Source: a virus
Lineage: Duplodnaviria > Heunggongvirae > Uroviricota > Caudoviricetes
Direction: 5' to 3' (one strand)
IMG/VR virus record: IMGVR_UViG_3300042339_000806
DNA: 64,000 nucleotides
The position numbers and the translations under genes are program-made. The notes below the pieces were generated by a model. It did no database searches, had not been told where the DNA came from, and saw nothing but the letters and a program-made list of their open reading frames with translations. Positions 13,411 through 61,029 of the stretch are shown here, in pieces; the stretch's first letter is position 1, and the number at the start of each line of letters is the position of its first letter.

Positions 13411-13415
13411 CAAAA

Positions 13416-19742: not shown

Positions 19743-20153
19743 ATGCTAAGACATAGAATATACTTAGACGACGTAAGAACACCAGTTGATCCAACTTGGA
19801 TCGTGGTAAGAAATTACGAAGAGTTTGTACAAAAGGTACAAGACTTAGGACTGGAAAACATTGATATAATTTCATTAGATCACGATTTAGGACCTTCGGC
19901 AATGGCTGAATGGCACTCAAACGTGTATCACAATTATGAATTAAATTATGATAACATTGAAGAGAAAACTGGAATGGATTGCACTAAATGGCTGGTGGAT
20001 AAATGGTTGGACGGAGCTCCTGTTGTTGATGTTGTAATACATTCTGCAAATGCTGTGGGGAGTGCTAACATGATGGGGTACATAAACAACTACAGACATA
20101 TCCACAGATTACCTCAGAATTGTGTAAGAGTACAAATTGAACATACAGTATAA
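19743..20153 (+). CDS. hypothetical protein
   Basis: ORF only. Confidence 0.35.
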   Translation: MLRHRIYLDDVRTPVDPTWIVVRNYEEFVQKVQDLGLENIDIISLDHDLGPSAMAEWHSNVYHNYELNYDNIEEKTGMDCTKWLVDKWLDGAPVVDVVIHSANAVGSANMMGYINNYRHIHRLPQNCVRVQIEHTV

Positions 20154-24189: not shown

Positions 24190-25860
24190 ATGAATAATAA
24201 ATTTACATTCCACGTATTAGGACTTCCTCATACAATCACTAATAGAGAATTTGTAGCATGTGCTTATACACAAAAGGCTTGGAAATTCTGTAAGATGATG
24301 GGGGAAAGAGGGCATACTATCTACCATTACGGACATGAGGAGAGCGACGCTCCATATGCGGAAAACGTAACAGTTATCACCAATAAGGTATGGAAAAAAG
24401 TATACGGTACTCATGACTATAAATCTAAATTCTTTAAATATAATGTAGAGGATGAAGCCTATCAAACCTTCTATAAAAATGCTATAAAGGAAATAGGAAA
24501 GAGAAAACAGAAGAATGATTTCATTTTACCATTCTGGGGGTCAGGAGTAAGGCCGGTATGTGACGGACATCCAGATTTAATAACTGTTGAACCAGGAATA
24601 GGCTATGCAGGAGGGCATTGGGCAAATTGGAAAGTATTTGAATCTTATGCAATCTACCATGCATACTACGGACTGATGGGAGTGAATTATTGCGATATGA
24701 AAAACTACGAAGTAGTAATTCCAAACTACTTCGACCTCTCTGATTTTGAATTTAGCGATAAAAAAGAAGATTACTTTCTTTATTTAGGAAGAGTCTTTGA
24801 CGGAAAAGGAGTTAATATAGCAATCCAGGTTACTGAACACTTAGGGTATAAATTAAAGATAGCAGGACAGATTGACGCCGATGGACCTTATAAGGATGGA
24901 AAGTTTCCTCCTCATGTAGAGTTTGTAGGGTATGCTGGAACCGAAAAGAGAAAAGAACTGATGAAGAGTGCAAAAGGATGCTTCCTACCTTCACAATATG
25001 TTGAACCATTTGGAGGAGTTCAAATAGAAAATTTACTATCAGGAACACCAACAATTACCTCAGACTGGGGAGCCTTTGCAGAGAATAATATAAACGGAGT
25101 AACTGGTTACAGATGTAGAACGTTTGATGATTACTTGCAGGCAACTATAAAAATTAACAACGGAGAAATAGATTACAAGACTTGTAGAGAGTATGGAGAA
25201 AAGTTTTCATTAGAGAATGTAGCTCCTATGTACGAAAAATATTTTAAAGATATTTTAAATGTTTATGAAGGAGAAGGATGGTATCAAACAGATATTCCTA
25301 GAGGGAAGACTGATGCTTTCAATTATACAAATATGGAGGAAGAAGAAAAGCCATTTGCAGATAATCTAGCTAAGTGGATTAAAAAGTATTACAATCCTAA
25401 AAAAGTAGTCGATGTAGGTTGCGGGAGTGGGACTTATGTAAGGTCCTTAAGAAAAGAAAAAATTGATGCTATTGGGTACGATATTAACGATGTAGTAGAA
25501 GATCAGGACTTTCTCTTTAAAAAGAGTATCTTTGACCTAAACCATAAATCAGAACTAATTATCTGCCTGGAAGTAGCCGAGCACATAGAGACAGAACACA
25601 ACGACAGTATTGTTGAAAAGTTATACGAAAACCTTAAACCAGGAGGTACTTTAATCTTCACAGCAGCACATCCAGGACAGCAAGGAATAGGTCATATAAA
25701 CTGTCAAACAAAAGACTACTGGTGGGAGAAGTTTGCAGAAAAAGGATTAGTCCGAGATTTAAAAGCAGAGAAGGATTGGGAAGATTATTTTGATCAAGGA
25801 AGAGAGTACATGGGATGGTTCCGTATGAACAAGCTCTTTTTAACTAGAGTAGGATCATAA
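24190..25860 (+). CDS. bifunctional glycosyltransferase (GT-B/GT4-like) - class I SAM methyltransferase fusion
   Basis: N-terminal/central EPFGGVQIENLLSGTPTITSDWGAF resembles the GT4 E-x7-E/PVI region. C-terminal VVDVGCGSGTYV is SAM-MTase motif I, with DAIGYDIN / LIICLEV motifs II/III. Confidence 0.5.
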   Translation: MNNKFTFHVLGLPHTITNREFVACAYTQKAWKFCKMMGERGHTIYHYGHEESDAPYAENVTVITNKVWKKVYGTHDYKSKFFKYNVEDEAYQTFYKNAIKEIGKRKQKNDFILPFWGSGVRPVCDGHPDLITVEPGIGYAGGHWANWKVFESYAIYHAYYGLMGVNYCDMKNYEVVIPNYFDLSDFEFSDKKEDYFLYLGRVFDGKGVNIAIQVTEHLGYKLKIAGQIDADGPYKDGKFPPHVEFVGYAGTEKRKELMKSAKGCFLPSQYVEPFGGVQIENLLSGTPTITSDWGAFAENNINGVTGYRCRTFDDYLQATIKINNGEIDYKTCREYGEKFSLENVAPMYEKYFKDILNVYEGEGWYQTDIPRGKTDAFNYTNMEEEEKPFADNLAKWIKKYYNPKKVVDVGCGSGTYVRSLRKEKIDAIGYDINDVVEDQDFLFKKSIFDLNHKSELIICLEVAEHIETEHNDSIVEKLYENLKPGGTLIFTAAHPGQQGIGHINCQTKDYWWEKFAEKGLVRDLKAEKDWEDYFDQGREYMGWFRMNKLFLTRVGS

Positions 25861-42499: not shown

Positions 42500-42507
42500 A
42501 TTAAATA

Positions 42508-42532
42508 AGGCTTGTTTTTACAGGCCTTTTTT
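42508..42532 (+). terminator. rho-independent terminator
   Basis: aggcttg-ttttta-caggcct hairpin followed by TTTTTT. Confidence 0.5.
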
Positions 42533-43754: not shown

Positions 43755-43789
43755 GGGTATATTTATATATACATATAATTATATAAACA

Positions 43790-43972
43790 ATGAACACTAA
43801 AAAATTAACATCGGTTAAGGTAGAAGAAGATCTTCTACAGGAATTTAAAGAACAGTGCGTAAGGCATAAATTTTCTCTACAAAAGCTTGTAGACAGAGCA
43901 ATTTTTTTATATCTTACAGAAGATAACTTCAAGCAAAAGTTACACACACAAACAAATATTAAATTAAAATAG
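43790..43972 (+). CDS. hypothetical small protein
   Basis: ORF only. Confidence 0.3.
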   Translation: MNTKKLTSVKVEEDLLQEFKEQCVRHKFSLQKLVDRAIFLYLTEDNFKQKLHTQTNIKLK

Positions 43973-43976
43973 TTAC

Positions 43977-45419
43977 ATGAAAGAAAAATTTCGTTATGTT
44001 AAGAAGGAGGATCGTAAAAAGATTCTCTTGTTATGCGATGATATTAGGATGCATTCCGGTATCGCAACTATGGCCAGAGAGATTGTTGTAGGAACATCTC
44101 ACCACTTTAATTGGGTCAATTTAGGAGCAGCTATCAATCATCCAGAAGCAGGTAAAGCATTTAATATCTCAGCTGAGGTAGGAAAGTTAAACGGTATAGA
44201 AGATGCTGATGTAAAGGTAATTCCTAACAATGGTTATGGAGATGCTATGCAAATAAGAAATTTAATTGCTCAAGAAAAACCAGACGCTATTTTTATATTT
44301 ACTGATCCAAGATACTGGACTTGGTTGTTTGAAATAGAAAGAGAGATTAGAAATGAAATTCCTTTAATGTATTTAAACATTTGGGATGACTATCCAGCAC
44401 CTCTGTATAATAAACCTTACTACGAGTCATGTGACTTATTGATGGCAATCTCAAAACAAACTAAAAATATTAATGAAATAGTTTTAGGAGAAGCAGCTAA
44501 GGGTAAGCTACTTAAGTATGTTCCTCATGGAATAAACGATAAGCATTTCTTTCCTATGACTTCAGTAGATGAATTAGAAACACTAGGTAAATTTAAGAAA
44601 GACTTATTCCAAGGAAAAGATATCGAGTTCGTAGCATTCTTCAACTCTAGAAACATTAGAAGAAAATCTCCAGGAGATGTAATTCTTTCTTATAGAATGT
44701 TCTGTGATTTGATCGGAGAAGAGAAAGCTAAGAAATGTGCCCTTGTAATGCATACACAAGCTGTAGATGAAAATGGTACAGATCTTTATGCAGTAAGAGA
44801 AGCAATTTGTGATGACAGTTATGTAAATGTATTCTTCTCACAAGAGAGATTAGATACTCCACATATGAACTTACTGTATAATATAGCAGACGTTGGAATG
44901 CTTATCACTTCAAATGAAGGATGGGGGTTGTCTTTAACTGAAACTATGATGGCTGGTAAGATGATTATTGCCAACGTAACAGGTGGTATGCAAGATCAAA
45001 TGAGATTTACAGATGAGAACGGTAAGTGGATTGACTTCACTTCAGACTTCCCTTCTAATCATAGAGGAACATATAAGGAGTGTGGTGAGTGGGCAGTCCC
45101 TGTATTCCCTTCAAACATTTCAATGGTAGGCTCAGTTCCAACTCCTTATATCTTTGATGATAGATGTCGACCAGAAGATGTAGCTAAAGCTTTAGAAGAA
45201 GTTTACAACATGGGTAAAGAGGAAAGAAACAGAAGAGGAGCACTAGCAAGAGAATGGGTAACATCAGATGAATCAGGAATGTCAGCACGTCAGATGTGTG
45301 AGAATGTACTTGATTCAATGGATGAAACATTTGAGAAGTTTGTTCCTAGAACTAGATTTGATCTTTACAAAATAGAGGACCGACCAAAAAAATATATCAC
45401 ACATAAATTAATATACTAG
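43977..45419 (+). CDS. glycosyltransferase, GT-B fold (GT4-like)
   Basis: DVGMLITSNEGWGLSLTETMMAGKMIIANVTGG matches the GT4 EGFGL...EAMAxGxPVI region. Confidence 0.5.
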   Translation: MKEKFRYVKKEDRKKILLLCDDIRMHSGIATMAREIVVGTSHHFNWVNLGAAINHPEAGKAFNISAEVGKLNGIEDADVKVIPNNGYGDAMQIRNLIAQEKPDAIFIFTDPRYWTWLFEIEREIRNEIPLMYLNIWDDYPAPLYNKPYYESCDLLMAISKQTKNINEIVLGEAAKGKLLKYVPHGINDKHFFPMTSVDELETLGKFKKDLFQGKDIEFVAFFNSRNIRRKSPGDVILSYRMFCDLIGEEKAKKCALVMHTQAVDENGTDLYAVREAICDDSYVNVFFSQERLDTPHMNLLYNIADVGMLITSNEGWGLSLTETMMAGKMIIANVTGGMQDQMRFTDENGKWIDFTSDFPSNHRGTYKECGEWAVPVFPSNISMVGSVPTPYIFDDRCRPEDVAKALEEVYNMGKEERNRRGALAREWVTSDESGMSARQMCENVLDSMDETFEKFVPRTRFDLYKIEDRPKKYITHKLIY

Positions 45420-45421
45420 TT

Positions 45422-46735
45422 ATGAGTAAACCTACATTAGTAGTAAGCTGCCCTATCGATACATATTCAGGATACGGAGCAAGAGCCAGAGACTTTGTAC
45501 AATCGATTATCGATACAGATAAGTATGATGTTAGAATATTATCACAGAGATGGGGTAATACTAGATTTGGATACTTAAAAGATCACGGAAATGAATCTCT
45601 ACACTCTAGAGTTATTACACAACTAACACAACAACCAGACATCTGGATTCAAATTACAGTACCGAATGAATTCCAAAAGGTCGGTAAATATAATATTGGA
45701 GTAACAGCTGGTATTGAGACTACACTTTGTGATCCTTCCTGGGTACAGGGATGTAACAATATGGACTTAGTTATTGTATCAGCACAACATGCTAAGAAAG
45801 TATTTGAAGAAAGTAAATTCAATATACAAGATGAAAAAACAGGTCAAGTAACAGGAGTAGTTGAATTAAAAACTAAAGTTGAAGTAGTATTTGAAGGAGC
45901 TAATATAGAGAAGTATATGCCATTGGCATGGCCAGTAAAACTAGACTTAGATAGTATCGATGAAATGTTTTGCTTTTTAGTAGTAGGACATTGGCTACCG
46001 GGAGTACTTGGAGAGGATAGAAAGAATATTGGATACACTATCAAAGCATTCCTTGAAACATTTAAGAATAAGAAATCAGCACCAGCACTTCTTTTAAAAG
46101 TACAAGCAGGATCAGGAACATCTATTATGGATAGAGAAGCTGTATTGGATAAAATTGATGAAATAAAAAAAACTGTAAAAGGAAAGTTACCAAACATACA
46201 TCTTCTACATGGAGAGCTATCTGATGCTGAGATGAATGAGCTATACAATCACGGTAAAGTAAAAGCAATGATCTCTCTAACAAAAGGAGAAGGATTTGGA
46301 AGACCTTTATTAGAGTTTAGTTTAGTAAACAAACCAATTATAGTATCAGGATGGTCAGGTCATACAGACTTCTTAGATAATAAATTTACAAAACAAATAG
46401 GAGGTCAACTCACAAACGTACATCCTTCAGCTGCAATTGATAAGATGATACTAAGAGAAAGTCAATGGTTTACACCGGATGATATGCTAGTAGGCAAGGC
46501 ATTAAAAGATGTCTTTGAAGATTATAAACCATATAAGGAATTAGCAAAGAGACAGGGTCATAAGAGCAGAACTGAGTTCTCTTATGAGAAGATGAGAGAG
46601 ACGCTAGATAACCTTCTAACACAGTACATTCCTGAGTTCCCTAAGCAAGTACAGTTAAAGCTACCTACGCTTAAGAAAATAGAATTACCACAGGCTAATA
46701 AAGTTGAAATACCAAGGCTTAAAAAAATAGAATAA
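45422..46735 (+). CDS. glycosyltransferase, GT-B fold (GT4-like)
   Basis: ISLTKGEGFGRPLLEFSLVNKPIIVSGWSG matches the GT4 signature. Confidence 0.5.
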   Translation: MSKPTLVVSCPIDTYSGYGARARDFVQSIIDTDKYDVRILSQRWGNTRFGYLKDHGNESLHSRVITQLTQQPDIWIQITVPNEFQKVGKYNIGVTAGIETTLCDPSWVQGCNNMDLVIVSAQHAKKVFEESKFNIQDEKTGQVTGVVELKTKVEVVFEGANIEKYMPLAWPVKLDLDSIDEMFCFLVVGHWLPGVLGEDRKNIGYTIKAFLETFKNKKSAPALLLKVQAGSGTSIMDREAVLDKIDEIKKTVKGKLPNIHLLHGELSDAEMNELYNHGKVKAMISLTKGEGFGRPLLEFSLVNKPIIVSGWSGHTDFLDNKFTKQIGGQLTNVHPSAAIDKMILRESQWFTPDDMLVGKALKDVFEDYKPYKELAKRQGHKSRTEFSYEKMRETLDNLLTQYIPEFPKQVQLKLPTLKKIELPQANKVEIPRLKKIE

Positions 46736-47193
46736 TGGAAGAAAAAATGTCAATCTGTCCACACTGTGGAGGAAATGCTTGCTATGAACAAGCAGTAACA
46801 GAAGAAGTAACAACAAGCTTTTGCTTTGGTTGTGGATATTCAACTTCAACTCTAATGGTTGAAGGAGGAGATCTAGTAGCAAAAACACTAGAAGCATCAC
46901 CAGAACTTTATAAAGATCTTATGTTTATTGACGAAGATAAGAGAGTATGGTTCCCTTCAACAGTTACTCTTCCTGGTAAGGGAATGGTATTCTTAGATGG
47001 TACAGCAAAAGAGAATTGGAAATGGGCTGCAGTAAACTCTATAGAGATTTTAGAAGAAGAGAAATCTAAGTTCCCAAAAGGTCAAACAACTAAAATGGAT
47101 ATGAAAAATATTAAACATTTTGAGAAAGAAGACTTCATGGAAGCATTAGATGCTATAAACTTCTTTGATGTAGAAGTTGCAGAATCAAAATAG
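46735..47193 (+). CDS. zinc-ribbon-containing hypothetical protein
   Basis: CPHCGGNACY ... CFGCGY. Confidence 0.3.
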   Translation: MEEKMSICPHCGGNACYEQAVTEEVTTSFCFGCGYSTSTLMVEGGDLVAKTLEASPELYKDLMFIDEDKRVWFPSTVTLPGKGMVFLDGTAKENWKWAAVNSIEILEEEKSKFPKGQTTKMDMKNIKHFEKEDFMEALDAINFFDVEVAESK

Positions 47194-47211
47194 ATTTCGT
47201 ATATTTACAGT

Positions 47212-47826
47212 ATGAAAATAAGTTATGCAATAACAGTTTGTAATGAATTGGAGGAAGTGAAAAGACTAGTCAACTTCCTCCTTTCACATAAACGAAAAGA
47301 AGACGAGATAGTAATCTTGTTTGATGAGAAGAACGGAACAGATGAAGTATTTGATTATATAGAATCTCAAGTACACGACTGTGAAGTCTTCTGTGAAAAA
47401 TTCGAAGGACACTTTGCCGATTGGAAGAACTTACTGACTTCACATTGTACAGGAAATTATATCTTCCAAATAGATGCTGATGAGATTCCTCATCTCAATT
47501 TAATTCAAAACCTACCTACACTGTTAGAGACTAACGATGTTGATATGCTCAGAATACCTAGAGTAAATACTGTAGAAGGACTAACTCAAGAACATATTCA
47601 GAAGTGGGGATGGAATGTAAATGAAAAAGGATGGGTGAACTGGGCTGATTGGCAAATGAGAATCTATAAGAATGTTCCTTACATTAAATGGGTTAATAAG
47701 GTACATGAAGTACTAGAAGGATTTAAGATCCATGGCATGCTTCCAGTAGAAGAGGAATGGGCTTTGTACCATCCAAAGACAATTGACAGACAAGAGAAAC
47801 AAAACAACTACTACGATACATTATGA
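47212..47826 (+). CDS. glycosyltransferase family 2-like
   Basis: ISYAITVCNELEEV (GT2 N-terminal) and QIDADEIP (DxD). Confidence 0.45.
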   Translation: MKISYAITVCNELEEVKRLVNFLLSHKRKEDEIVILFDEKNGTDEVFDYIESQVHDCEVFCEKFEGHFADWKNLLTSHCTGNYIFQIDADEIPHLNLIQNLPTLLETNDVDMLRIPRVNTVEGLTQEHIQKWGWNVNEKGWVNWADWQMRIYKNVPYIKWVNKVHEVLEGFKIHGMLPVEEEWALYHPKTIDRQEKQNNYYDTL

Positions 47827-49022
47827 AAAAAATAAACAAACAAATTGATCTGTTTAAAGTATTTATGTCACCAACAGCAGCAGCAGAAGTGGGTGAAGTA
47901 CTTAATAGCGGTTTTATCGGACAGGGACCTAAAGTTAATGAGCTTGAAAAGAAATTACAAAACTTCCTTAAAGTAGATAACTCAGAGGTAATTACTTACA
48001 ATTCAGCAACATCAGCAGAACATTTAGCATACCATTTATTAAAAAAGCCTTCTAAAATATCAATAGGATTTGATGGAGCGGCTATGGTAACAGAGAACTG
48101 GCCAGGACTTGAAGAAGGGGATGAAGTATTAACAACAGCGTTGACTTGTACAGCAACCAATTGGCCTATTTTAGCAAATGGATTAAAGATCAAATGGGTA
48201 GATGTGGAACCTACTACAATGAATATTTGCTTAAAGGATTTAGAGAGTAAATTAACAGAGAAGACTAAAATTGTAGCCGTAGTACACTGGGGAGGATATC
48301 CAGTAGACTTAGTAGAACTTCAAGCTATTCAAAAAAGATATAGAGAGAAGTACGGCTTTCCTTTTATGATTATGGATGATGCTGCTCATGCTATGGGAAG
48401 TAAATTAGATGGAAAGAACATCGGCACATTCGAAACTATTACTACATTCTCATTACAAGCAATTAAACATATAACATCTGTAGATGGAGGATTCTGGACA
48501 TCACCTTTCATAGAATTAAACAAAAGAGCAAAACTAACTAGATGGTACGGTATTGATAGAGAAGGTCCTAGATCAGACTTTAGATGTGAATCAGATATTC
48601 CTGAGTGGGGTTTTAAATTCCATATGAATGATATCTGTGCAACAGTAGGACTCTCAAATCTAAATCATGCAGAAGAGATTATATCAAAGCATAAAGCAAA
48701 TGGAGCTTTCTATAATAAAGAATTGCAAGGAGTAAAAGGAGTTACTCTATTGGAGAATGATCCTAGAAAAGAATCAGCTTACTGGCTATATACTATGAGA
48801 GTAGAGAACAGAGATGCTTTTATGAAGTATATGTCTGAGAACGGAGTGGCTACTTCTAGAGTTCATGAAAGAAATGATAAGCATACTTGTACAAGAGAAT
48901 TCTTAGCTCCTCTTCCTAATGTAGATTTAGTATCAAAAGATATGATATGCATACCAGTAGGGTGGTGGGTAACAGAGGAAGAGAGACAGTACATAGTAGA
49001 TTTAATTAAACAAGGATGGTAG
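47823..49022 (+). CDS. DegT/DnrJ/EryC1-family PLP-dependent sugar aminotransferase
   Basis: MDDAAHAMGSKLDGKNIGTF...FSLQAIKHITSVDGG (active-site Lys region). 399 aa. Confidence 0.7.
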   Translation: MKKINKQIDLFKVFMSPTAAAEVGEVLNSGFIGQGPKVNELEKKLQNFLKVDNSEVITYNSATSAEHLAYHLLKKPSKISIGFDGAAMVTENWPGLEEGDEVLTTALTCTATNWPILANGLKIKWVDVEPTTMNICLKDLESKLTEKTKIVAVVHWGGYPVDLVELQAIQKRYREKYGFPFMIMDDAAHAMGSKLDGKNIGTFETITTFSLQAIKHITSVDGGFWTSPFIELNKRAKLTRWYGIDREGPRSDFRCESDIPEWGFKFHMNDICATVGLSNLNHAEEIISKHKANGAFYNKELQGVKGVTLLENDPRKESAYWLYTMRVENRDAFMKYMSENGVATSRVHERNDKHTCTREFLAPLPNVDLVSKDMICIPVGWWVTEEERQYIVDLIKQGW

Positions 49023-49240
49023 ATACTAAAGTAGATTTAAAATCATCAGTTACAGAAGCAGTAGGAGAATTAACAACTCAGATTATACACTTTGTAGGAG
49101 GAGAGAAGAGAACATTTACAGATGTAGTATCTACGTCAATCAGGCAAGGACAGTTCACAAAGTTTAAACAAAAGGACGGTACTTGGATTATGATAAATGA
49201 TAAGAATGTTTTATGTATAGAAGTTTTTAAACAAGAGTAG
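49016..49240 (+). CDS. hypothetical protein
   Basis: ORF only. Confidence 0.3.
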   Translation: MVDTKVDLKSSVTEAVGELTTQIIHFVGGEKRTFTDVVSTSIRQGQFTKFKQKDGTWIMINDKNVLCIEVFKQE

Positions 49241-49246
49241 ACAGAT

Positions 49247-49849
49247 ATGAAATATGCAAATATATTACCGCAACACAAATATCCTTGGCTGGAGACGTTG
49301 TACAGTATGGTACTTGATATAAAGCCTAAGGTAGTCATAGAGTACGGAACAGAGCATGCAGGCACGGCTATAGTAATGGGACTTGCATTGAAAGAGTTGT
49401 ACGAACAGGAACAGCATCAAGGAATTGTATTCACATATGATACTTTTGAAAAACAAAGTAAAGGGGAAATAGGCTCATCACCGAACTATAAAGTAGCAGT
49501 GGATAATATAGCTCACTACGGATTACAAGACTATGTAAAAGTGGACTATGGGGACTTTTTTAAATTTTGTGACGACCCTAGTAAAGAGTTTGATTTACTG
49601 TACTTTGACATAGACAATGATGGAGATAAGGTACTGGAAATGTATAACGGATGCAAGAGTAATATTGAAAAAGGCTCAGTAGTAATCTTTGAAGGAGGTT
49701 CACAAGTAAGAGACGATGTTGAATGGATGAATAATCTAAACAAAGTAAAAATTACAGACATTAAAGAACAAGTAGGGTACCAACTACTCACACCTAATCA
49801 AAAATACTCTTGTAGTATAATCTTTAACACCAAAAAATATAGTTTATGA
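49247..49849 (+). CDS. class I SAM-dependent methyltransferase (TylF/CmcI-like O-MTase?)
   Basis: VVIEYGTEHAGTAIVM (motif I-like) and LLYFDIDNDGD. Confidence 0.4.
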   Translation: MKYANILPQHKYPWLETLYSMVLDIKPKVVIEYGTEHAGTAIVMGLALKELYEQEQHQGIVFTYDTFEKQSKGEIGSSPNYKVAVDNIAHYGLQDYVKVDYGDFFKFCDDPSKEFDLLYFDIDNDGDKVLEMYNGCKSNIEKGSVVIFEGGSQVRDDVEWMNNLNKVKITDIKEQVGYQLLTPNQKYSCSIIFNTKKYSL

Positions 49850-50547
49850 TACAGTTTATAATAGTAGGGTGGCACTTTGACCTATACCCGGAATTAGTAC
49901 AGGAATTAATTGAATTGCAAGAGGCAAATAAAGATTCAATAAACATCTTTTGGTCATGTCATAGAGAGCCTTCAGAGTCAGTTAAAGCTAACTTCGAATA
50001 TAAAGTGTTTCCTAACTTAGGACTAGAGGATGGAGCTTATCAACAAGCATTAGATTACCTAGATATTGCTGACGATACTATTTTGTTCTTAATGCATGAC
50101 GATATCATAGTTAAGGATTGGGGATTCATTAATGAATGCATAGGAAGGTTAGAGCAAGGAGCTGCCTTCGTAGGTAATGGAATGAATTACCCAGACTATA
50201 TGTCTCCAACTAGAATCTACGATGAGGAGTTCTTTCCACGTACAGTACTAGAAGTATCACGTCCGGAGAGTCTTCACTACTTCCAGAAAGAAGGAATGGC
50301 CTATACCTTTAGAGAAAGCTTCCTATGTACAGTAAGAAAATATCTAAGAGATATAAATGACTTTGAAGTAGTATGGGAAGAGCCAGGAGAGAATATGCCA
50401 ATAGGTCCTATGGGTAATATGCAACAATCAATGCTGGGGTGGAAAATTACACAGACATATGGAGTAGAACGTATGAGCTATCTTTCAAATACTTACATGG
50501 ATTCCGATTGGTTATACGAATGTGAAAGAGGTCTAGTTAAAAACTAA
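49846..50547 (+). CDS. hypothetical protein (possible GT-A-like, HDD motif)
   Basis: ILFLMHDDIIV. Weak. Confidence 0.3.
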   Translation: MIQFIIVGWHFDLYPELVQELIELQEANKDSINIFWSCHREPSESVKANFEYKVFPNLGLEDGAYQQALDYLDIADDTILFLMHDDIIVKDWGFINECIGRLEQGAAFVGNGMNYPDYMSPTRIYDEEFFPRTVLEVSRPESLHYFQKEGMAYTFRESFLCTVRKYLRDINDFEVVWEEPGENMPIGPMGNMQQSMLGWKITQTYGVERMSYLSNTYMDSDWLYECERGLVKN

Positions 50548-50563
50548 TATAATAAAACAAGTT

Positions 50564-51556
50564 ATGGATAAAAAAGTATACTACATAAGTGATTGGCATG
50601 TAAGCCCAGGGCATTACAGTTACGAACGTCATCGCTTTCCACAAGCATACATAGAGCTAGCTCCTTGGTATATCTTAAACTGGAGAGATATTCCTAATGT
50701 AATAAAAGGTACTGGAAATATTATCGTAATAAACACTCCTGTTCACGATGAGTTGGCTAAGTTAAAGATTGCCGATAGTCTTACAGAAGGTAATGAAGTG
50801 TATATTGTACAGGAAGGATCCGTATGGGACTGGTTAGATTGGTCAGCTCCAGAACAAGAAATGTATATAAAGATACTGTCTAAAGCAAAAGCATACCTAT
50901 GCTCTAATGAATACGAAAAACGTATGATGAAAGTGTTTATAGAAAATAGTATAAAGGTACCGCCCTGCACTAGGCATTTCGCAGAATCAGCTAGAGAACA
51001 TTTAGGGAACTATGTGTTTATAGTTAATCCCTGTAAGGGATATCAGAGAGGTATGATCTCTCACAAGTTAGTATACGATAGTGTTCCTAAAGAATTAGAA
51101 GTGTATACTATGCATTATGATAGAACTCCTCACATTGGAAGAATGTTACCACTACCAGACTCGTACTCTATGCCAGGTTTTAAAAAATTAAACTATATGC
51201 AGCATGATGAGTTTTTATCCACTGCTTATACTTCAAGATTTGGAGTAGATATTCATAGGGACTTTTCAGCAGGACAAACAGCAGTAGACTTTGGATCACT
51301 CGGAGTACCTATGGTAGGTAATATTCAACTAGATGCTCAGAGAAATATATTTCCAGACACTTCTTTCGAATGGGACGACTACGAAGGATTTAAGAAATGT
51401 ATTAAAACACTTTCTACTGATGATGAATTCTGTAAAGAAGTCGGAAGAAAAGCTTTAGAGAATGTACAGAAAACACATTTAAGTACTATAGTTGTAGAAA
51501 CTTTTAAAAACGAATTTAATACATTAAGAGAATGTCAAACGGAATCTATAAAATAA
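50564..51556 (+). CDS. hypothetical protein
   Basis: 330-aa ORF inside the sugar island. Confidence 0.35.
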   Translation: MDKKVYYISDWHVSPGHYSYERHRFPQAYIELAPWYILNWRDIPNVIKGTGNIIVINTPVHDELAKLKIADSLTEGNEVYIVQEGSVWDWLDWSAPEQEMYIKILSKAKAYLCSNEYEKRMMKVFIENSIKVPPCTRHFAESAREHLGNYVFIVNPCKGYQRGMISHKLVYDSVPKELEVYTMHYDRTPHIGRMLPLPDSYSMPGFKKLNYMQHDEFLSTAYTSRFGVDIHRDFSAGQTAVDFGSLGVPMVGNIQLDAQRNIFPDTSFEWDDYEGFKKCIKTLSTDDEFCKEVGRKALENVQKTHLSTIVVETFKNEFNTLRECQTESIK

Positions 51557-52176
51557 CAGAAGACTTTGAAAAAGCCTTAGGAGATTATACAGGAGCAAAG
51601 TATGTAATTACTTTAGATAATATGAGTAACGGACTTTTCTTAGCACTATATTACGAGAACTATGTAAAAAAGAGCATAACATCTCCTACAATAAAAATAC
51701 CAAACAGAACATACCCTTCAGTACCATGTGAGATTATTCATGCTGGATTAAGAGTAGAGTTTGAAATAGTAGAGGGAAGAACTATTAAAGGAGCTTATAA
51801 TCTAAAAGGAAGTAATGTATGGGACTCTGCTTTATCGTTTACAGCAGACATGTATAAGCAAGGAACTCATATGTGTATATCTTTTACAGGACCTTATAAG
51901 CATTTTAAATTATCTAAAGGAGGAGCAATACTGACAGATAGCGAAGAGGCTTACTTGTGGTTTAAGAGAGCTAGGTATAGTGGAAGAAGAGAATGTTCGT
52001 ACCACGAAGATGATTTGGATATGTTAGGATGGAATTTCTATATGATGCCAGAGTTAGCAGCAAGAGGAATGTTATTAATGAATCAATTCTACACACTAGA
52101 CGGTACTAAGAAACATAATGCTGATTTAGAATTACCTTACCCAGACTTATCTAAGTTCGAGATATACACACGATGA
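51532..52176 (+). CDS. short DegT-like domain protein
   Basis: N-terminus ITEDFEKALGDYTGAKYVITLDNMSNGLFLAL and KLSKGGAILTDSEEAY resemble DegT N- and GEGG regions, but the protein is only 214 aa. Confidence 0.35.
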   Translation: MSNGIYKITEDFEKALGDYTGAKYVITLDNMSNGLFLALYYENYVKKSITSPTIKIPNRTYPSVPCEIIHAGLRVEFEIVEGRTIKGAYNLKGSNVWDSALSFTADMYKQGTHMCISFTGPYKHFKLSKGGAILTDSEEAYLWFKRARYSGRRECSYHEDDLDMLGWNFYMMPELAARGMLLMNQFYTLDGTKKHNADLELPYPDLSKFEIYTR

Positions 52177-52745
52177 AAAAAGCTTTAATAGGATTTGGGG
52201 GACATGCTAGAGAGGTCTTAGCTCAAATGGGAGAAGATCTTATATGCTTTGTAGATAATCAATATGTAGTAGAGGGTACATTACCTATCTCTTCTTTTGA
52301 TCCTACAGAGTATGAAGTAATGGTAGCAGTAGGAGACTCTAAGGACAGGTACGACATAGTTCAGAAGCTTCCAAAAGAGACTAAATACTTTACCTTCATA
52401 CATCCTACAGCTCTTATAATGAATAATGTGGAGATAGGAGAGGGTAGTTTTATTGGTGCTTATTCAATACTTACTACTAATATTAAAATAGGTAAACATG
52501 CATTACTGAATAGAGGTAATCAAATAGGGCATGACTGCATCATCGGAGATTACTTCAGTGCAATGCCAGGAGCTATTGTATCAGGTAATGTAACAATTTA
52601 CAGCTGCGTGTATATGGGAACTAACTCAACAATTAGAGAAAAACTATCAGTACATAGCTTTGCTACAATCGGACTTAATGCCGGAGTTGTAAAATCAACA
52701 GAAGGTCCTTATACTTATATAGGAACACCAGCTAAAATACTATAA
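52173..52745 (+). CDS. NeuD/PglD-family sugar N-acetyltransferase (left-handed beta-helix)
   Basis: N-terminal MKKALIGFGGHAREV Rossmann-like NeuD start plus hexapeptide repeats (IGDYFSAMPGAIVSGNVTIYSCVYMGTNSTI). Confidence 0.65.
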   Translation: MKKALIGFGGHAREVLAQMGEDLICFVDNQYVVEGTLPISSFDPTEYEVMVAVGDSKDRYDIVQKLPKETKYFTFIHPTALIMNNVEIGEGSFIGAYSILTTNIKIGKHALLNRGNQIGHDCIIGDYFSAMPGAIVSGNVTIYSCVYMGTNSTIREKLSVHSFATIGLNAGVVKSTEGPYTYIGTPAKIL

Positions 52746-52755
52746 ACAAAATAGA

Positions 52756-53607
52756 ATGAAAGTACTAGTAACAGGAGGAGCAGGATTTGTAGGAACAAAT
52801 CTAATCAAAAGACTTCTAGAGGAAGGACATGAAGTTGTATCGGTTGATAACTACAACACAGGATTGAAAAGCAATCATCAAGAAGGATGCTTATATGTTG
52901 AACAAGACATAAGAAACATATCTGATTATTCTGCATGGGGTAAATTTGATATTGTATATCATTTAGCAGCAATTGCTAGAATACAGCCATCCTTTATCAA
53001 TCCGGAAGAGTACTTTATAACTAATGCTTATGCTACTATGAAGATAGCTAAGTATTGTTCCGATAAGAACATACCACTTGTATATGCAGGAAGTAGTTCA
53101 CATCATTCAGGTAAGTTTAAAAATCCATATACATTTAGTAAGGATGTAGGAGAAGAAGTAATCCAGTTATTTGAACAACATTACAATTTAAAAGCTACCA
53201 TAGTACGATTTTATAATGTATACGGACCATATCATTTAAAAGAAGGAGGATATACTACTCTAATAGGAGCATGGGAGAAGAGAGTTGAAGAAGGTAAGTC
53301 ACTAATCATTTACGGAGATGGAACAAAGCGTAGAGACTTCACACACGTTGATGATATTATAGAAGGATTAGTATTAGTGAATACTAAACAAGCTTGGGGG
53401 ATTATATTTGAATTAGGAAAAGGACATAACTATTCAGTTAATGAAATAGCAGATGCTTTTGGAATAGAGGTAGAATATAAAGAGAACAAGCCAGGTGAAG
53501 CAGAGATAACTCTATGTACAGATACAGCAGCAAGAGACATCCTAGGTTGGAATCCTGAGAAAGATATCATAGATTACATAAAAGAATACTTATCATGCAA
53601 AAAATAA
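52756..53607 (+). CDS. NAD-dependent epimerase/dehydratase (SDR)
   Basis: VLVTGGAGFVGTNLIKRLLEEGHEVVSVDN Rossmann motif. YxxxK region present. Confidence 0.7.
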   Translation: MKVLVTGGAGFVGTNLIKRLLEEGHEVVSVDNYNTGLKSNHQEGCLYVEQDIRNISDYSAWGKFDIVYHLAAIARIQPSFINPEEYFITNAYATMKIAKYCSDKNIPLVYAGSSSHHSGKFKNPYTFSKDVGEEVIQLFEQHYNLKATIVRFYNVYGPYHLKEGGYTTLIGAWEKRVEEGKSLIIYGDGTKRRDFTHVDDIIEGLVLVNTKQAWGIIFELGKGHNYSVNEIADAFGIEVEYKENKPGEAEITLCTDTAARDILGWNPEKDIIDYIKEYLSCKK

Positions 53608-54785
53608 CATTCGTAATACCTTCCAGAAACAATCTAGAGTTTTTACAATTAGCTTATAAATCAATTCGAAATCTTAGAACCAAGCATGAAGTCTTAGTAC
53701 TTGATGATGCTTCTACAGATGGAACAGCAGAATGGATTACATCTCTTAACGATGAAGATCTTATCACACATGTCAATCCAGGTCCAGAAAGGATAGGAAT
53801 TGTAGGAATGTTTGACAAAGGAATTGAGATGGCAAGAACAGAGATCATATTTGCCTTCCATGCCGATATGATTGCAGGTCCTAATCTAGATAAGAATATA
53901 TTAAAGCATTTAAAAAGAGGAACAGTTGTAAGTGCAACTAGAATAGAACCTTCTCTTCATCCACCAGGACCGGAGAAGATTACTCAAGATTGGGGAATAG
54001 AAGTAGAAGAGATAGACTTCAACGGAGTAATAAATGCTATAGGTCATTTTGAGAATCAAAATAAGGATAAAACAACTGAGGGTATATTTGCTCCTTGGTG
54101 TATGTATAAAGAAGACTTCCAGGCAGTAGGAGGACATGACGAAGTATTTGCACCTCAATCAAAAGAAGACTCAGATCTATTTAACAGATTTGTATTAAAT
54201 GGTTACAAAGTAATTCAATCATGGGATGGATTAGTATATCATTTTACTTCTAGAGGAAGTAGATTTAATAAACATGCCGGAGGAGGAGCTGGAAAGAATA
54301 GTGAGGAGTGGTTATACACAACTACTAAGAATGGTAGAGAGTTTATTCGTAAGTGGGGATCGTTTATAAAGCATGATTCATTAATGAAGCCAATCGTACC
54401 TCCAAAGTATAATGTAGCATTTGTAGTTAACAATTGTAACTCTGAGATGTTAGAAGCATTTGAACCTTGGTGCGATAGAATCTATATTAACGATGAACTG
54501 GGAATATTGTTTGCAGCCTACTATGAAACTGAACATAAAAATACATCATACGATTTAAAGAAACGAGTACTTAATACGAAGTGGAACGATCCTCAAGGAG
54601 AAAATGATATCGTAGTAGAGTTTGATGGAAAGCAGATCACACAACAGTCCTTCAGCGTTATACAACAACTGGCAGAGATTATAAAAGAGAGTGGAGAAGT
54701 AGGAGAGTTTGAATTAGATGTATTTAAAATAACTATTAACTCTCTTATAGAATATCAGAACGATCTAATAGTATGTAAAAATTAA
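53595..54785 (+). CDS. glycosyltransferase family 2
   Basis: ITFVIPSRNNLEFL...VLDDASTDGT (GT2 motifs). Confidence 0.55.
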   Translation: MQKITFVIPSRNNLEFLQLAYKSIRNLRTKHEVLVLDDASTDGTAEWITSLNDEDLITHVNPGPERIGIVGMFDKGIEMARTEIIFAFHADMIAGPNLDKNILKHLKRGTVVSATRIEPSLHPPGPEKITQDWGIEVEEIDFNGVINAIGHFENQNKDKTTEGIFAPWCMYKEDFQAVGGHDEVFAPQSKEDSDLFNRFVLNGYKVIQSWDGLVYHFTSRGSRFNKHAGGGAGKNSEEWLYTTTKNGREFIRKWGSFIKHDSLMKPIVPPKYNVAFVVNNCNSEMLEAFEPWCDRIYINDELGILFAAYYETEHKNTSYDLKKRVLNTKWNDPQGENDIVVEFDGKQITQQSFSVIQQLAEIIKESGEVGEFELDVFKITINSLIEYQNDLIVCKN

Positions 54786-54804
54786 CTATTTATAACAAAA
54801 ACAT

Positions 54805-55158
54805 ATGAGCTTAATCAACGAAATAAAAGAGATGCTATCTGAAGTTACAAAGGTAAACTTCAAAGGAAACAAATTTGTCCTTAAGATAGATGTAAACGAA
54901 GATCCAAATAAGAAAGGAATCAAAGTACAATTCCTTCCAACTACATTTGCAGGTATGTCTAAGCAACAACAAGACGACATCGCTATGGAGTTAGGAGCTA
55001 AATTGAATCAAGGACTATCGGCTCTAGGCTTAACAGTTGAGAGAGACAGAGAATTAAAGGATAAGACGATTGTAGGCTTCTTTATATACATCGAATACCT
55101 AGATAAGATTATTATCAATGCTTTAAATCAAGCAGCACAAGAACCAAGTAACAACTAA
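54805..55158 (+). CDS. hypothetical protein
   Basis: ORF only. Confidence 0.3.
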   Translation: MSLINEIKEMLSEVTKVNFKGNKFVLKIDVNEDPNKKGIKVQFLPTTFAGMSKQQQDDIAMELGAKLNQGLSALGLTVERDRELKDKTIVGFFIYIEYLDKIIINALNQAAQEPSNN

Positions 55159-55168
55159 TTAGAGAGAT

Positions 55169-55381
55169 ATGCCACAGTTTTGTTTTTATTCAAAAAATAA
55201 CCCTACACAAGAACCAGTAGGAGTATTACATGCAGCAAGTAGAGAAGAAGCAATAAAATTCTTCTCATTATCAAAACAGTTACCAGTAAACGATTTTCTA
55301 ACAATTTTTGAAGTAAAGAACTACACGTATGGTACACAAGAAGGACTTAAGGAAAACACTAAACAGCTTCTTAAAGGCTAG
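55169..55381 (+). CDS. hypothetical protein
   Basis: ORF only. Confidence 0.3.
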   Translation: MPQFCFYSKNNPTQEPVGVLHAASREEAIKFFSLSKQLPVNDFLTIFEVKNYTYGTQEGLKENTKQLLKG

Positions 55382-55403
55382 TATTAGTATAAAGGAAAAG
55401 GGT

Positions 55404-55739
55404 ATGGCTAGAGAGGTAATCGAAAAGAAACTCTTCATAGAAAATATTATCCTTTTAAGAGAGATAGAGGATAGGAGAGACTTCATGGAAGAAGAGATCG
55501 GAGTAGATATGTCTATCTACGAAGAGAAGTTCCTACAAATAATAGAAAATCTATTCAAGATACACTTCAGCAAAGAACAATTTGCATTAATACAGTACTA
55601 CCTTTACCAAGTCCCTACAATAGATAATTGGGATGGAAAGATAGATCTCTCAGATGGAAAGAAAATGATTACAGTTGACTTTGAAACACCTGAGCAGGTT
55701 TGGAATGTAATAACTAGCTTAAAAGAAGTAAAGAAATAG
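55404..55739 (+). CDS. hypothetical protein (start trimmed)
   Basis: Internal Met after the upstream stop. Confidence 0.3.
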   Translation: MAREVIEKKLFIENIILLREIEDRRDFMEEEIGVDMSIYEEKFLQIIENLFKIHFSKEQFALIQYYLYQVPTIDNWDGKIDLSDGKKMITVDFETPEQVWNVITSLKEVKK

Positions 55740-60192: not shown

Positions 60193-61029
60193 ATGAACAG
60201 AATTTTAGTAGCAGTAGGATTAATCCTAGTAGTTTTTGCAGTAACCATGTCATGTGAGAACATTGACTCAGGTAACATTGGTATCAAAGTAAACAAGTTT
60301 GGTACAGGAAGAGGGGTAAGTGGAGTAACAGAGTGTACAGGTACAGTCTTTTATAATCCAATCACAACAAACATCTTTGAATTTCCAATCAATATTCGTC
60401 ATAAAGAGTATACTGACGAAGGATCATTTGTAGTGAATAGTAAAGATGGATCAGAGTTTCATGTTAGTCCAATTGTCAACTATAGAATTAATCCAGATAA
60501 AGCCACACAGATCTTTGCAAAATATAGAAAAGACTTAGATGGTATTGAGAATGGATTCCTTAAGACAGCAGTAACAGAAGCATTTAGAATCGTTACCAAT
60601 GGCTATACAGCTGATCAATTAATCTCAAGTAGAGAAGCATTTGATAATAAAGTAAAAGCTACATTAAGAAAACAATTAGAGCCAGAAGGATTTGTATTGG
60701 ATCAATTTACAACTAATCTAGAATATCCTACATCATTCAAGAATGCTATTAATGCTAAGAATAATGCAGTACAGAAGGCTTTAATGGCTGAGAATAGAGT
60801 TAAACAAGCAGAGGCTGAAGCAAAGATTAAAGTAGCAGAAGCAGAAGGAGATGCTCAATCAACACTTACAAGAGCAAGAGCTGAATCAGAAGCAAATACT
60901 TTAAAGCAGAGAACATTAACTCCAATGCTATTGCAACAACAATGGATTGAAGCATGGAGAAAAGGTGGATCTAAAGTACCTCAGTATATTACAAGCGGTG
61001 GAGGAAACTTCATGATGACTATAAAATAG
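60193..61029 (+). CDS. SPFH/band-7 (stomatin/prohibitin/HflK-like) membrane protein
   Basis: N-terminal TM, central band-7-like region, C-terminal AEAEAKIKVAEAEGDAQ...RARAESEA coiled coil typical of HflK/C and YqiK proteins. Confidence 0.45.
   Translation: MNRILVAVGLILVVFAVTMSCENIDSGNIGIKVNKFGTGRGVSGVTECTGTVFYNPITTNIFEFPINIRHKEYTDEGSFVVNSKDGSEFHVSPIVNYRINPDKATQIFAKYRKDLDGIENGFLKTAVTEAFRIVTNGYTADQLISSREAFDNKVKATLRKQLEPEGFVLDQFTTNLEYPTSFKNAINAKNNAVQKALMAENRVKQAEAEAKIKVAEAEGDAQSTLTRARAESEANTLKQRTLTPMLLQQQWIEAWRKGGSKVPQYITSGGGNFMMTIK

Follow-up and report, generated by a model that had tools for sequence, protein, structure and literature searches.

Gene content and origin of the locus

A glycosylation locus, in which nucleotide-sugar tailoring enzymes are paired with several glycosyltransferases (GTs), lies in the 64,000-nucleotide (nt) sequence of the virus record IMGVR_UViG_3300042339_000806 (Caudoviricetes), the whole of which is called the window below. 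Between positions 43977 and 54785, 13 open reading frames (ORFs) are tightly packed on the + strand, the strand of all large ORFs in the window, with gaps of at most 19 nt. Packing of this density runs from 43790 to 55739, and the GC content across the region is flat at 0.34-0.36. A preliminary description made from the sequence without database searches had recognized a phage-encoded sugar island here, and had named a host-derived or chimeric assembly as one finding that would overturn it. The genes exist at these coordinates and are phage-encoded. The segment is colinear with the three complete genomes of the Flavobacterium phage vB_FspM_immuto (Immutovirus immuto; NC_055915, MW353175-7), with 88.8% nucleotide identity over 100% of its length; immuto is a 160-kilobase (kb) Baltic Sea myovirus of the genus Immutovirus, with Flavobacterium sp. 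LMO8 as its host. In addition, a 61.5-kb JGI metagenome contig contains an identical copy of the glycosyltransferase gene at 43977-45419 with conserved gene order, and the protein of this gene is listed in 83 blocks of the protein collection index. Because the region is colinear with the immuto genomes and the arrangement recurs on independent metagenome contigs, we regard it, as judged by these alignments, as genuine phage DNA that is neither host-derived nor chimeric.

The immuto genes gp181-gp169 correspond to the 13 genes in identical order. They are already annotated in GenBank, under labels that include glycosyltransferases, an aminotransferase, a methyltransferase, a 'pilin glycosylation protein' and an epimerase, and we found no discussion of the immuto island in the literature searched. 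The gene set itself is thus not new; new here are the architecture of a core joined to a cassette, the primer-like GT2 enzyme and the inference about timing.

The left part of the locus, 43790-47826, forms the core module. Its first gene (43790-43972, +) encodes an Arc-like ribbon-helix-helix (RHH) protein of 60 amino acids (aa) that matches the Arc-like repressor family phrog_3180 (1.6e-5) and is kept in all relatives. Two GT-B (GT4-like) glycosyltransferase genes follow on the same strand, at 43977-45419 (480 aa; PF00534, 29.5 bits) and 45422-46735 (437 aa; phrog_2170), each with an invariant E-x7-E motif (E314...E322 and E290...E298, respectively). Their Pfam matches to GT1/GT4 are weak, and the two genes are paralogous (hhalign probability 93.7%). 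B736L of chlorovirus NY-2A is the best PDB match of the first (2.9e-9) and the best solved relative of the second (5.8e-4). This likeness was considered as evidence for a protein rather than a DNA acceptor and was dropped, because the DNA transferases T4 alpha-gt, T4 beta-gt and RB69 ORF003c also match B736L (PMC6024577), so that it does not discriminate between targets. The next gene (46735-47193, +) encodes a Cys-rich zinc-ribbon protein of 152 aa with weak Lar-like matches; an alignment of 17 relatives revealed the N-terminal cysteines C8, C16, C30 and C33 and a conserved C-terminal domain. A role of this protein as an acceptor adaptor is speculation.

The core ends with a GT2 enzyme of 204 aa (47212-47826, +) that carries an invariant DADE motif and is the proposed priming transferase. 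A profile built from 17 sequences was searched against the PDB and revealed the glycosyltransferase domain of GmaR as the best solved relative, over the full length (1.2e-9), with further matches to SunS (2e-6) and ThuS (9.5e-5). The AlphaFold2 (AF2) model (predicted local distance difference test, pLDDT, 93.6) comprises a GT-A domain alone, ending at 204 aa. A Foldseek search of the PDB using this model placed SunS/ThuS structures in all of the top six positions, with the lowest root-mean-square deviations among the ten best matches (rmsd 3.1-4.0); a Foldseek search against viral models returned nothing beyond generic phage and giant-virus GT2 matches. The other GT2 of the locus, used as a control, matched chondroitin synthase (6.8e-13), dolichol-phosphate mannose synthase and SpsA in the PDB, and none of GmaR, SunS and ThuS. 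The N-terminal domain of GmaR transfers N-acetylglucosamine (GlcNAc) onto flagellin (PMC9638930). Both the profile and the model point to direct glycosylation of a polypeptide by the core GT2.

The part of the locus from 47827 to about 53860 constitutes the cassette, and all of its genes are again on the + strand. It opens with a pyridoxal 5'-phosphate (PLP)-dependent sugar 4-aminotransferase of 399 aa (47823-49022; PF01041, 1.2e-67), in agreement with the DegT-type assignment made earlier; its PDB matches are AtmS13/CalS13 (1e-98 to 1e-92) and ArnB (1e-27). Behind it lies a 74-aa protein with no family match (49016-49240). Copies with 59-62% identity stand beside the CalS13-like aminotransferase, in reversed order, at three related loci (L052, L056 and L057), and the protein may be a small partner subunit. 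The methyltransferase of the preliminary description is probable but borderline: the product of 49247-49849 resembles CmcI/Methyltransf_24-type class I S-adenosylmethionine (SAM) methyltransferases at 25.9 bits against a cut-off of 26.3, and a PDB search with it gave nothing useful. The next gene (49846-50547) encodes a 233-aa protein with an HDD motif, which has no Pfam, NCBIfam or PHROG match, gave negative hhalign comparisons with both GT2 profiles and has a homologue in immuto alone.

The 330-aa protein encoded at 50564-51556 likewise has no Pfam, NCBIfam or PHROG match. Comparison of its family with both core GT-B families by hhalign was negative, and the family profile found nothing better in the PDB than GT4 enzymes at E = 0.25. 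Its AF2 model, of moderate quality (pLDDT 66; predicted template-modelling score, pTM, 0.68) matches TarM, Gtf3/GtfC and BshA in Foldseek, which indicates a predicted GT-B fold of about the size of Gtf3/GtfC. Since this model matches GT-B enzymes, the five glycosyltransferases counted previously are five indeed, but divide into three GT-B and two GT2 enzymes rather than two GT4-like and three GT2-like ones. The family (about 326 aa; P0241-P0360) is found in 9 of 23 cassettes and has 1367 homologues in the protein collection, none with a Pfam domain; those listed with source names are called 'hypothetical protein', apart from two named 'uncharacterized membrane protein YfbV'.

A second, short DegT-like protein had also been noticed, and it is borne out as a 'mini-DegT' of 214 aa (51532-52176) that keeps the PLP lysine (K123) but is missing some 60 residues from the large domain as well as the entire C-terminal domain. 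Members of 196-214 aa occur in at least three cassette types (L026:19429-20022 and L072:16759-17349 encode proteins of 196-197 aa) and have the PLP-lysine motif SF..xKH..L..GG.ILTD; because they are conserved, they cannot be pseudogene fragments. The acetyltransferase that had been called NeuD/PglD-type is confirmed as a left-handed beta-helix N-acetyltransferase of the PglD/VioB type (52173-52745), with PglD_N and hexapeptide domains and a score of 154.5 bits for TIGR03570 (NeuD/PglB/VioB) against a cut-off of 160.8. Its PDB matches are VioB (3.8e-29), then PglD (7e-18) and PerB (5e-13). The gene at 52756-53607 encodes a GalE-like extended short-chain dehydrogenase/reductase (SDR) of 283 aa (PF01370, 6e-44; PDB 4-epimerases, about 3e-29). 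The last gene, 53595-54785, is semi-conserved and encodes the terminal GT2, of 396 aa, in which the GT-A domain (PF00535, 6.6e-16) is followed by a C-terminal extension; copies with 47-56% identity occur at L052, L057 and L071.

Core, cassette and upstream motifs in related phages

The main structural fact of the locus, a conserved core joined to a hypervariable cassette, had been overlooked in the preliminary description. A scan of IMG/VR with the 43977-45419 protein yielded 80 loci with 54-100% identity, and these loci were compared in a tblastn matrix. The core was kept in all 44 loci with enough sequence. Every relative had a PD-(D/E)XK nuclease, the ORF of 60 aa, the GT-B pair, the gene for the zinc-ribbon protein and the GT2 of 204 aa. 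The cassette of the window, in contrast, was found in just one of 42 loci, immuto itself, while the other 41 differed: from 47823 onward the window has its genes in common with immuto alone, and conservation returns with the right flank at 54805. In each of five independent comparisons, homology on the left breaks off sharply where the 47212-47826 gene has its stop codon; on the right, nucleotide homology with relatives resumes at about 53859, within the terminal GT2. The cassette is about 6 kb long, and 22 types were distinguished among 24 loci. At least 8000 homologues of each of two core proteins are found in public genome and metagenome protein collections, the matches listed being close relatives. 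The core genes are therefore not rare, in disagreement with the rarity among phages that had been proposed.

The exchanged genes are devoted to sugars. A Pfam census of 150 cassette proteins revealed sugar chemistry only: GDP-mannose 4,6-dehydratases (best E value, 4e-134), RmlD-like reductases, DegT, GT2, GT10/GT11 fucosyltransferases and NeuB, as well as C-methyltransferases, thiamine pyrophosphate (TPP) enzymes and nucleotidyltransferases. The 170 proteins compared (159 from cassettes plus those of the window) fall into about 80 clusters. None of them has two or more hydrophobic segments, against four in a holin used as a control, and none of the 13 proteins of the island contains a hydrophobic 19-mer. 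We found no Wzx/flippase, Wzy/polymerase, ABC transporter, ligase, oligosaccharyltransferase, GtrA, GtrC or initiating phosphoglycosyltransferase in the cassettes of the 24 loci.

The sequences upstream of the locus offer a hint about its expression. The preceding unit ends with a terminator-like hairpin followed by a T run (42507-42528, +). No other good terminator is present on the + strand between 41 and 58 kb, and none lies within the block 43790-55739. The motif TATTTATA lies at 43760-43767 (+), 22 nt upstream of the gene that opens the block, and a second positioned copy lies at 54787-54794 (+), 10 nt upstream of 54805 at the start of the conserved right flank. These are the only two correctly positioned copies in the window, and they flank the island. 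The motif also precedes the Arc-like RHH gene in immuto and in most relatives.

Motif discovery was run on the intergenic regions of immuto, where TATTTATA occurs 30 times on the + strand and 15 times on the - strand. Although intergenic sequence makes up 6.1% of the immuto genome, 26 of the 30 + strand copies are intergenic, and most are 1-33 nt upstream of start codons. The motif precedes the terminase, portal, sheath, tube, hub, tape-measure and spike genes as well as the endolysin/holin operon; 18 of 79 genes in the structural half are preceded by it, compared with 8 of 146 elsewhere (p = 2.8e-4). A second class, TTGCTA-N17-TATATTTAGGTA, has 16 copies in immuto, 15 of them within the small-gene block at 60.9-76.2 kb, and the distributions of the two classes do not overlap. 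From their positions, the TTGCTA-N17 and TATTTATA classes are probably early and late promoters, respectively, which suggests that the island is expressed late, together with the virion and lysis genes. Two other promoter searches were uninformative. A sigma-70 scan of 41-58 kb was rejected as its matches were not above those in shuffled sequence (62 vs 67.9 expected), and the T4-type late promoter TATAAATA was not enriched on the coding strand.

In the window, the sigma-70-like form TTGCTA-N17-TATATTTAGGTATA occurs on the + strand at 15598, 18406, 55765, 56990, 57938, 60138 and 61086, repeated upstream of the small-gene block just downstream of the island. This presumed early block includes an SPFH/Band 7 protein (60193-61029, +; PF01145, 4e-24) that is absent from immuto.

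Outside the island the two phages diverge. Just 39% of the first 25 kb of the window aligns with immuto, at about 83% identity, and by these alignments the window represents a different phage that is a relative of immuto. The 13 island genes and the 7-deazaguanine pathway are common to both, whereas the window lacks ThyA and carries a GT4-methyltransferase fusion, an RNA-ligase module and other genes in addition. The RNA-ligase module (16729-18363 and 19743-20153, +; absent from immuto) comprises an AAA_33 kinase-like protein, a 375-aa RNA ligase (PHA02142 OB domain) and a cREC_REC 'cyclic-phosphate processing receiver' protein; situated next to a region matching tRNA-Glu, it looks like an RNA/tRNA repair cassette. 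The tRNA-Glu match itself (13338-13412) is 75 nt long and 92% identical to the tRNA-Glu gene of Cellulophaga phages phi4:1 and phi17:2. It lies in a poorly coding region at 9-14 kb that also holds an HNH endonuclease (12045-12551).

Sugar chemistry of the cassette

The preliminary description had read the dehydratase, aminotransferase and acetyltransferase as a complete sugar-activation pathway with the logic of bacillosamine or di-N-acetylated sugars. The extended SDR fold at 52756 stands, but the dehydratase part of that assignment does not. Consensus active-site motifs are established for 4,6-dehydratases and for UXS/ArnA decarboxylases, and the active-site stretch of the SDR, GSSSHH...YTFSK, contains no TDE, TSE or TDK dehydratase motif and is without the acid/base residues of either group of enzymes. 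The SDR scored 32 bits against PseB (TIGR03589; cut-off 408) and 93 against LegB (cut-off 475). Its other NCBIfam scores (GalE, 106; heptose epimerase, 102; RmlB, 99) differ little from that for LegB and were also far under the cut-offs. The aminotransferase, a DegT enzyme, scored 192 bits against PseC, for which the cut-off is 423, and its closest solved relatives are CalS13/AtmS13 rather than PglE/PseC. NTP_transferase was not matched by any island protein in Pfam and NCBIfam scans and was matched by 3 of the 150 cassette proteins of relatives; nor does the island contain a kinase or mutase. Because the island lacks both a dehydratase signature, including that of a PglF/PseB/FlaA1-type UDP-GlcNAc 4,6-dehydratase (Polysacc_synt_2, with an S-T-D-K active site), and a nucleotidyltransferase, neither the completeness of the pathway nor the bacillosamine logic holds. 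The PglD/NeuD-type acetyltransferase is not a specific feature in this respect, being common to the viosamine and perosamine pathways.

A different route is suggested by the relatives. L052 and L057 have the same aminotransferase (53-56% identity; 56% in L057) together with a GNAT acetyltransferase, and L057 does not have any SDR. The bacterial homologues of the aminotransferase, which share at most 52% identity and include none from Flavobacterium, adjoin RmlC and an RmlA-like gene. Since L057 has the pair without an SDR and the bacterial homologues stand beside Rml genes, the pair can evidently dispense with a dehydratase from the phage. The substrates of AtmS13 and CalS13 are TDP-4-keto sugars (PMC10951976). 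From these sequence comparisons, the aminotransferase and the acetyltransferase most likely convert a dTDP-4-keto-6-deoxyhexose supplied by the host into a 4-acetamido sugar. The pair parallels WecE/WecD, VioA/VioB and Mimivirus L136/N-L142.

A pentose route, in which a UDP-glucuronic acid (UDP-GlcA) decarboxylase is followed by an ArnB-like aminotransferase and acetylation, was considered in view of the matches to CalS13, AtmS13 and ArnB. It was ranked below the 6-deoxyhexose route because the SDR lacks the S-E motif, the consensus of UXS/ArnA enzymes, and because the bacterial neighbours are Rml genes.

Possible acceptors of the glycan

We consider it an even chance that the locus carries out late, cytoplasmic glycosylation of phage protein, probably virion protein, and among the three targets proposed earlier (virion proteins, modified DNA bases and host surface glycans) virion-protein glycosylation is the best supported. 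We favour it because the core is fixed while cassettes are swapped, the core GT2 resembles polypeptide transferases, the proteins are soluble, TATTTATA is placed before the block, and liquid chromatography-mass spectrometry (LC-MS) of immuto DNA speaks against a DNA acceptor.

In this proposal, the locus would be an autonomous, cytoplasmic system of two modules, probably expressed late. The first module, fixed across the lineage, would comprise the Arc-like regulator, the two paralogous, retaining-type GT-B enzymes, the zinc ribbon and the small GT2. The GT2 would place the first sugar directly on a phage protein, nascent or already folded, at a Ser, Thr or Cys residue, and the GT-B pair would extend it into a conserved inner glycan. 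The second module would be a replaceable cassette supplying lineage-specific nucleotide sugars and the transferases for them. Its input would be a host nucleoside diphosphate (NDP)-4-keto sugar, most likely dTDP-4-keto-6-deoxy-D-glucose made by host RmlA/RmlB. Amination at C4 by the aminotransferase (47823) and N-acetylation by the acetyltransferase (52173) would yield an N-acetylviosamine- or Fuc4NAc-type 4-acetamido-4,6-dideoxyhexose; the SDR (52756) would probably epimerize a second donor, and the probable methyltransferase (49247) would O-methylate a sugar. The chain would be finished by the GT-B enzyme at 50564 and the terminal GT2 at 53595. The acceptor would most probably be a virion surface protein, with the turnover of cassettes reflecting diversifying selection on an exposed glycan coat.

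Several observations weigh against this proposal. The GT-A similarity of the core GT2 is modest (41 bits; template-modelling score, TM, 0.65; 18-21% identity), and the enzyme lacks the C-terminal tetratricopeptide repeat (TPR)/helical domain with which GmaR and SunS bind their substrates; for these two reasons we describe it as the closest relative of the GmaR/SunS-type enzymes and do not assign it to that family. The locus lies at least 20 kb from the structural modules, between DNA-modification/lysis genes and the small-gene block. The immuto proteins were screened for Ser/Thr-rich tails resembling the acceptor sites of mycobacteriophages, and no conspicuous one was seen on the capsid or tail-tube proteins; such stretches do occur in tail spikes and in one protein that is exported. 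That TATTTATA is 'late' was inferred purely from gene positions. Undecaprenyl-linked intermediates are substrates of soluble transferases too, so that a use of host export machinery would be compatible with the absence of membrane proteins, and the exported proteins encoded by the phage (a cargo protein of the type IX secretion system, T9SS, and a protein that has a signal peptide and a mucin-like segment rich in Ser and Thr) show that it acts on the host envelope. Finally, the proposal does not account for the reaction of the SDR or for the roles of the proteins encoded at 49846, 51532, 49016 and 46735.

Known systems provide precedents for the proposal. Nearest in function are the Mimivirus viosamine cluster, the clade-specific Megavirinae clusters and the virion glycosylation of mycobacteriophages; nearest in enzymology is the bacterial glycosylation of flagellin and glycocins. 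Phage glycosyltransferases, together with methyltransferases, reportedly decorate mycobacteriophage capsid and tail-tube subunits in the cytoplasm (Freeman et al. 2023, Cell Host Microbe). A summary in PMC12619734 likewise describes mycobacteriophage capsid and tail-tube proteins as glycosylated. The present locus resembles those systems in combining phage-encoded glycosyltransferases with a methyltransferase; virion glycosylation was demonstrated there and is proposed here, and the host phylum differs. To our knowledge, the mycobacteriophage operons contain neither aminotransferase/acetyltransferase tailoring genes nor a replaceable cassette. Wholly cytoplasmic protein glycosylation, as we propose, is known from GmaR (O-GlcNAc on Listeria flagellin), SunS/ThuS (S-glycosyltransferases of glycocins), flagellin islands and Gtf3/GtfC (which glycosylate serine-rich repeat adhesins), and the core GT2 matches GmaR and SunS/ThuS, while the model of the 330-aa GT-B protein has Gtf3/GtfC among its top matches. 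Unlike the GmaR/SunS systems, the present locus is phage-encoded and has no TPR domain and no flagellin or glycocin precursor gene, and the identity to those enzymes is 18-22%. Islands for flagellin glycosylation differ from strain to strain, and an aminotransferase/acetyltransferase pair of the viosamine type is often among their genes.

The glycosylation clusters of giant viruses are also similar. The Mimivirus fibril glycans involve R141, L136, N-L142, five glycosyltransferases and O-2 methylation, and the clusters are clade-specific (PMC9614988). The present locus is like the Mimivirus, Megavirinae and chlorovirus clusters (PMC9614988) in being virus-encoded and in bringing together a 4-aminotransferase, an N-acetyltransferase of the PglB/PglD type, methylation and some five soluble glycosyltransferases, and both core GT-B enzymes have the chlorovirus enzyme B736L (B736L/A546L glycosyltransferases) as their best solved relative. 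The giant-virus clusters vary in content by clade, and their glycans are found on virion fibrils or capsids, where the system described here has a proposed acceptor. Mimivirus has its own 4,6-dehydratase, R141; none is recognizable in the present locus, where the donor keto-sugar is apparently supplied by the host. Furthermore, giant viruses have eukaryotic hosts, and the cassettes described here are replaced at a fixed site behind the core at nearly the level of strains rather than of clades.

The strongest alternative, which we consider unlikely but worth serious attention, is that the phage enzymes feed the undecaprenyl-linked assembly of the host (O-antigen, capsule or the general O-glycosylation of Bacteroidota) and thereby remodel its envelope. 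The altered glycans would be carried by the infected cell or by phage-encoded exported proteins, with superinfection exclusion and fewer progeny lost on debris as possible benefits. The PHROG category of the glycosyltransferases is 'moron/host takeover', the terminal GT2 matches a GtrB-like family, and bacterial surface-glycan transferases are mostly soluble or peripheral too. Hypervariable nucleotide-sugar/glycosyltransferase cassettes between conserved genes are typical of O-antigen and capsule loci and also occur in the sugar islands of marine T4-like cyanophages, for which we know of no established function. However, bacterial surface-glycan loci differ from the present one in having Wzx, Wzy, an ABC transporter, an initiating transferase or a ligase, and the cassettes of the 24 loci contain no flippase, polymerase, ligase, GtrA, GtrC or initiating phosphoglycosyltransferase. 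The primer GT2 resembles GmaR and SunS more than a polyprenol-phosphate transferase, and dolichol-/undecaprenyl-phosphate transferases were matched by the other GT2 only. A late-type motif also suits superinfection exclusion poorly, as this should act early. Because immuto is annotated with lysis genes and without an integrase or lysogeny gene, seroconversion of a lysogen does not apply.

The window encodes several proteins that appear to be exported. These are a cohesin-domain protein with a T9SS C-terminal sorting domain (115-846, +; Por_Secre_tail, 1.4e-9), a 476-aa protein (3145-4575, +) with a signal peptide, a mucin-like segment that is enriched in Ser, Thr, Gly and Asn over about 150 aa, and a C-terminal part whose last residues are ...KLTF, and two proteins with N-terminal signal-peptide-like sequences (2423-3145 and 4661-5116, +). 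Their presence speaks for an action on the host envelope, and any of them might serve as acceptor or partner should the glycan be placed there.

An improbable alternative is that the acceptor is a non-structural protein, of the host or of the phage, that is modified for takeover or against defence, comparable to the rhamnosylation of EF-P or to toxin-type glycosyltransferases. The resemblance of the core GT2 to cytoplasmic polypeptide transferases and the position of the locus among non-structural genes would suit such a role, but a regulatory or inactivating mark needs one sugar, not at least five transferases or 22 cassettes in 24 relatives with fucosyltransferases and NeuB, and the late-type motif speaks against takeover.

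Decoration of DNA, with sugars placed on the preQ1 amine or on a hydroxylated pyrimidine as in T4, RB69/DLP3 and the 5-hydroxymethylcytosine (5hmC) glycan clusters, is less probable still. It had been proposed for the preQ1 amine, and the locus does lie less than 10 kb from the 7-deazaguanine gene cluster. Phage DNA glycosyltransferases (T4 alpha/beta-gt, the arabinosyl-5-hydroxycytosine, or 5hoC, enzymes of RB69/DLP3, and the 5hmC clusters of Pyle et al.) likewise have GT-B or GT-A folds, DNA glycans of two or three sugars with partner epimerases are known, and those systems, which are variable, also combine two or more sequential glycosyltransferases with an epimerase. Nevertheless, when Cui et al. 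examined the virion DNA of immuto_2-6A with LC coupled to UV detection and tandem MS (LC-UV-MS/MS), they detected only dA, dC, dT and fdPreQ1, with dG fully replaced (PMC10516641), and this phage carries the same cassette as the window. The 7-deazaguanine proteins of the window are 96% (DpdA), 87% (DpdN), 82% (QueF), 95% (QueE) and 89% (FolE) identical to those of immuto, and the conserved DpdN is the formyltransferase proposed to cap the preQ1 amine. Phage DNA glycosylation, moreover, depends on a hydroxylated base, produced either by a ThyA homologue or jointly by a methyltransferase and TET; tblastn found no counterpart of the immuto ThyA (423 aa) in the window, and no TET-type dioxygenase or C5-methyltransferase was found in the window-specific ORFs scanned, which did not include all small ORFs. 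The cassettes of relatives carry GT10/GT11 fucosyltransferases and NeuB, for which we know of no precedent in DNA modification. The DNA reading is thus contradicted in the closest cultured relative and largely refuted there.

One gene near the 7-deazaguanine cluster sets the window apart from immuto. A 556-aa fusion of a GT4 domain (PF00534, 3.6e-16) and a class I SAM methyltransferase is encoded just upstream of QueD (24190-25860, +) and is absent from immuto, where the insertion point falls between the equivalent positions 29852 and 29843. Its position would be compatible with a role in DNA modification, but its homologues in unrelated phages do not lie beside Que genes; the glycosyltransferase domain is found in unrelated phage contigs with 60-72% identity, often a few kb from an SDR gene. 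The fusion may belong to the same glycan pathway as the island.

That the cassette tailors the sugar of a secondary-metabolite-like small molecule, as the matches of the aminotransferase to enzymes of the calicheamicin/AT2433 aminopentose pathways (1e-98 to 1e-92) might suggest, is hardly credible, given that no aglycone biosynthesis genes are present, that the aminotransferase, unlike the conserved core, is specific to the cassette, and that its bacterial homologues occur in Rml/glycosyltransferase surface-glycan contexts.

Returning to glycosylation of virion protein, we think it plausible, though somewhat short of an even chance, that the glycan coat of this aquatic myovirus lineage is swapped by replacement of the cassette at one fixed locus, giving phage 'glycotypes' comparable to the O-serotypes of bacteria. 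The inner part of the coat would be made by the GmaR/SunS-like primer together with the GT-B pair, and the outer part by alternative cassettes, of which there are more than 20, with fucose, nonulosonic acids, branched sugars and 4-acetamido sugars among the building blocks. If so, the free virion surface would be under strong diversifying selection, for which host lectin-like defences, decoy binding, grazers, enzymes and adhesion to particles or mucus are candidate agents.

Sugar-gene islands are common in the genomes of marine and freshwater phages, and their purpose has mostly been guessed. The present locus is tractable, as its cassette is found in cultured immuto isolates that grow on Flavobacterium sp. 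LMO8 and the DNA chemistry of that phage is known. From the architecture one would expect an inner glycan that is conserved and an outer one that varies, with late expression of the genes and a polypeptide as the acceptor. The cassettes further hold a store of uncharacterized enzymes, including the mini-DegT family and the 1367-member GT-B family that has no Pfam model. A further advantage is that each of two core proteins has at least 8000 homologues in public protein collections; the lineage is an abundant one of aquatic Flavobacterium phages. If the host envelope were the target, the locus would represent a new route of surface remodelling by a phage without annotated lysogeny genes. Should the virions carry the glycan, an abundant group of environmental phages would join the actinobacteriophages and giant viruses as viruses with glycosylated particles, and the phage surface glycan would be a fast-evolving trait that bears on host range, evasion of defence, particle stickiness and carbon flux.

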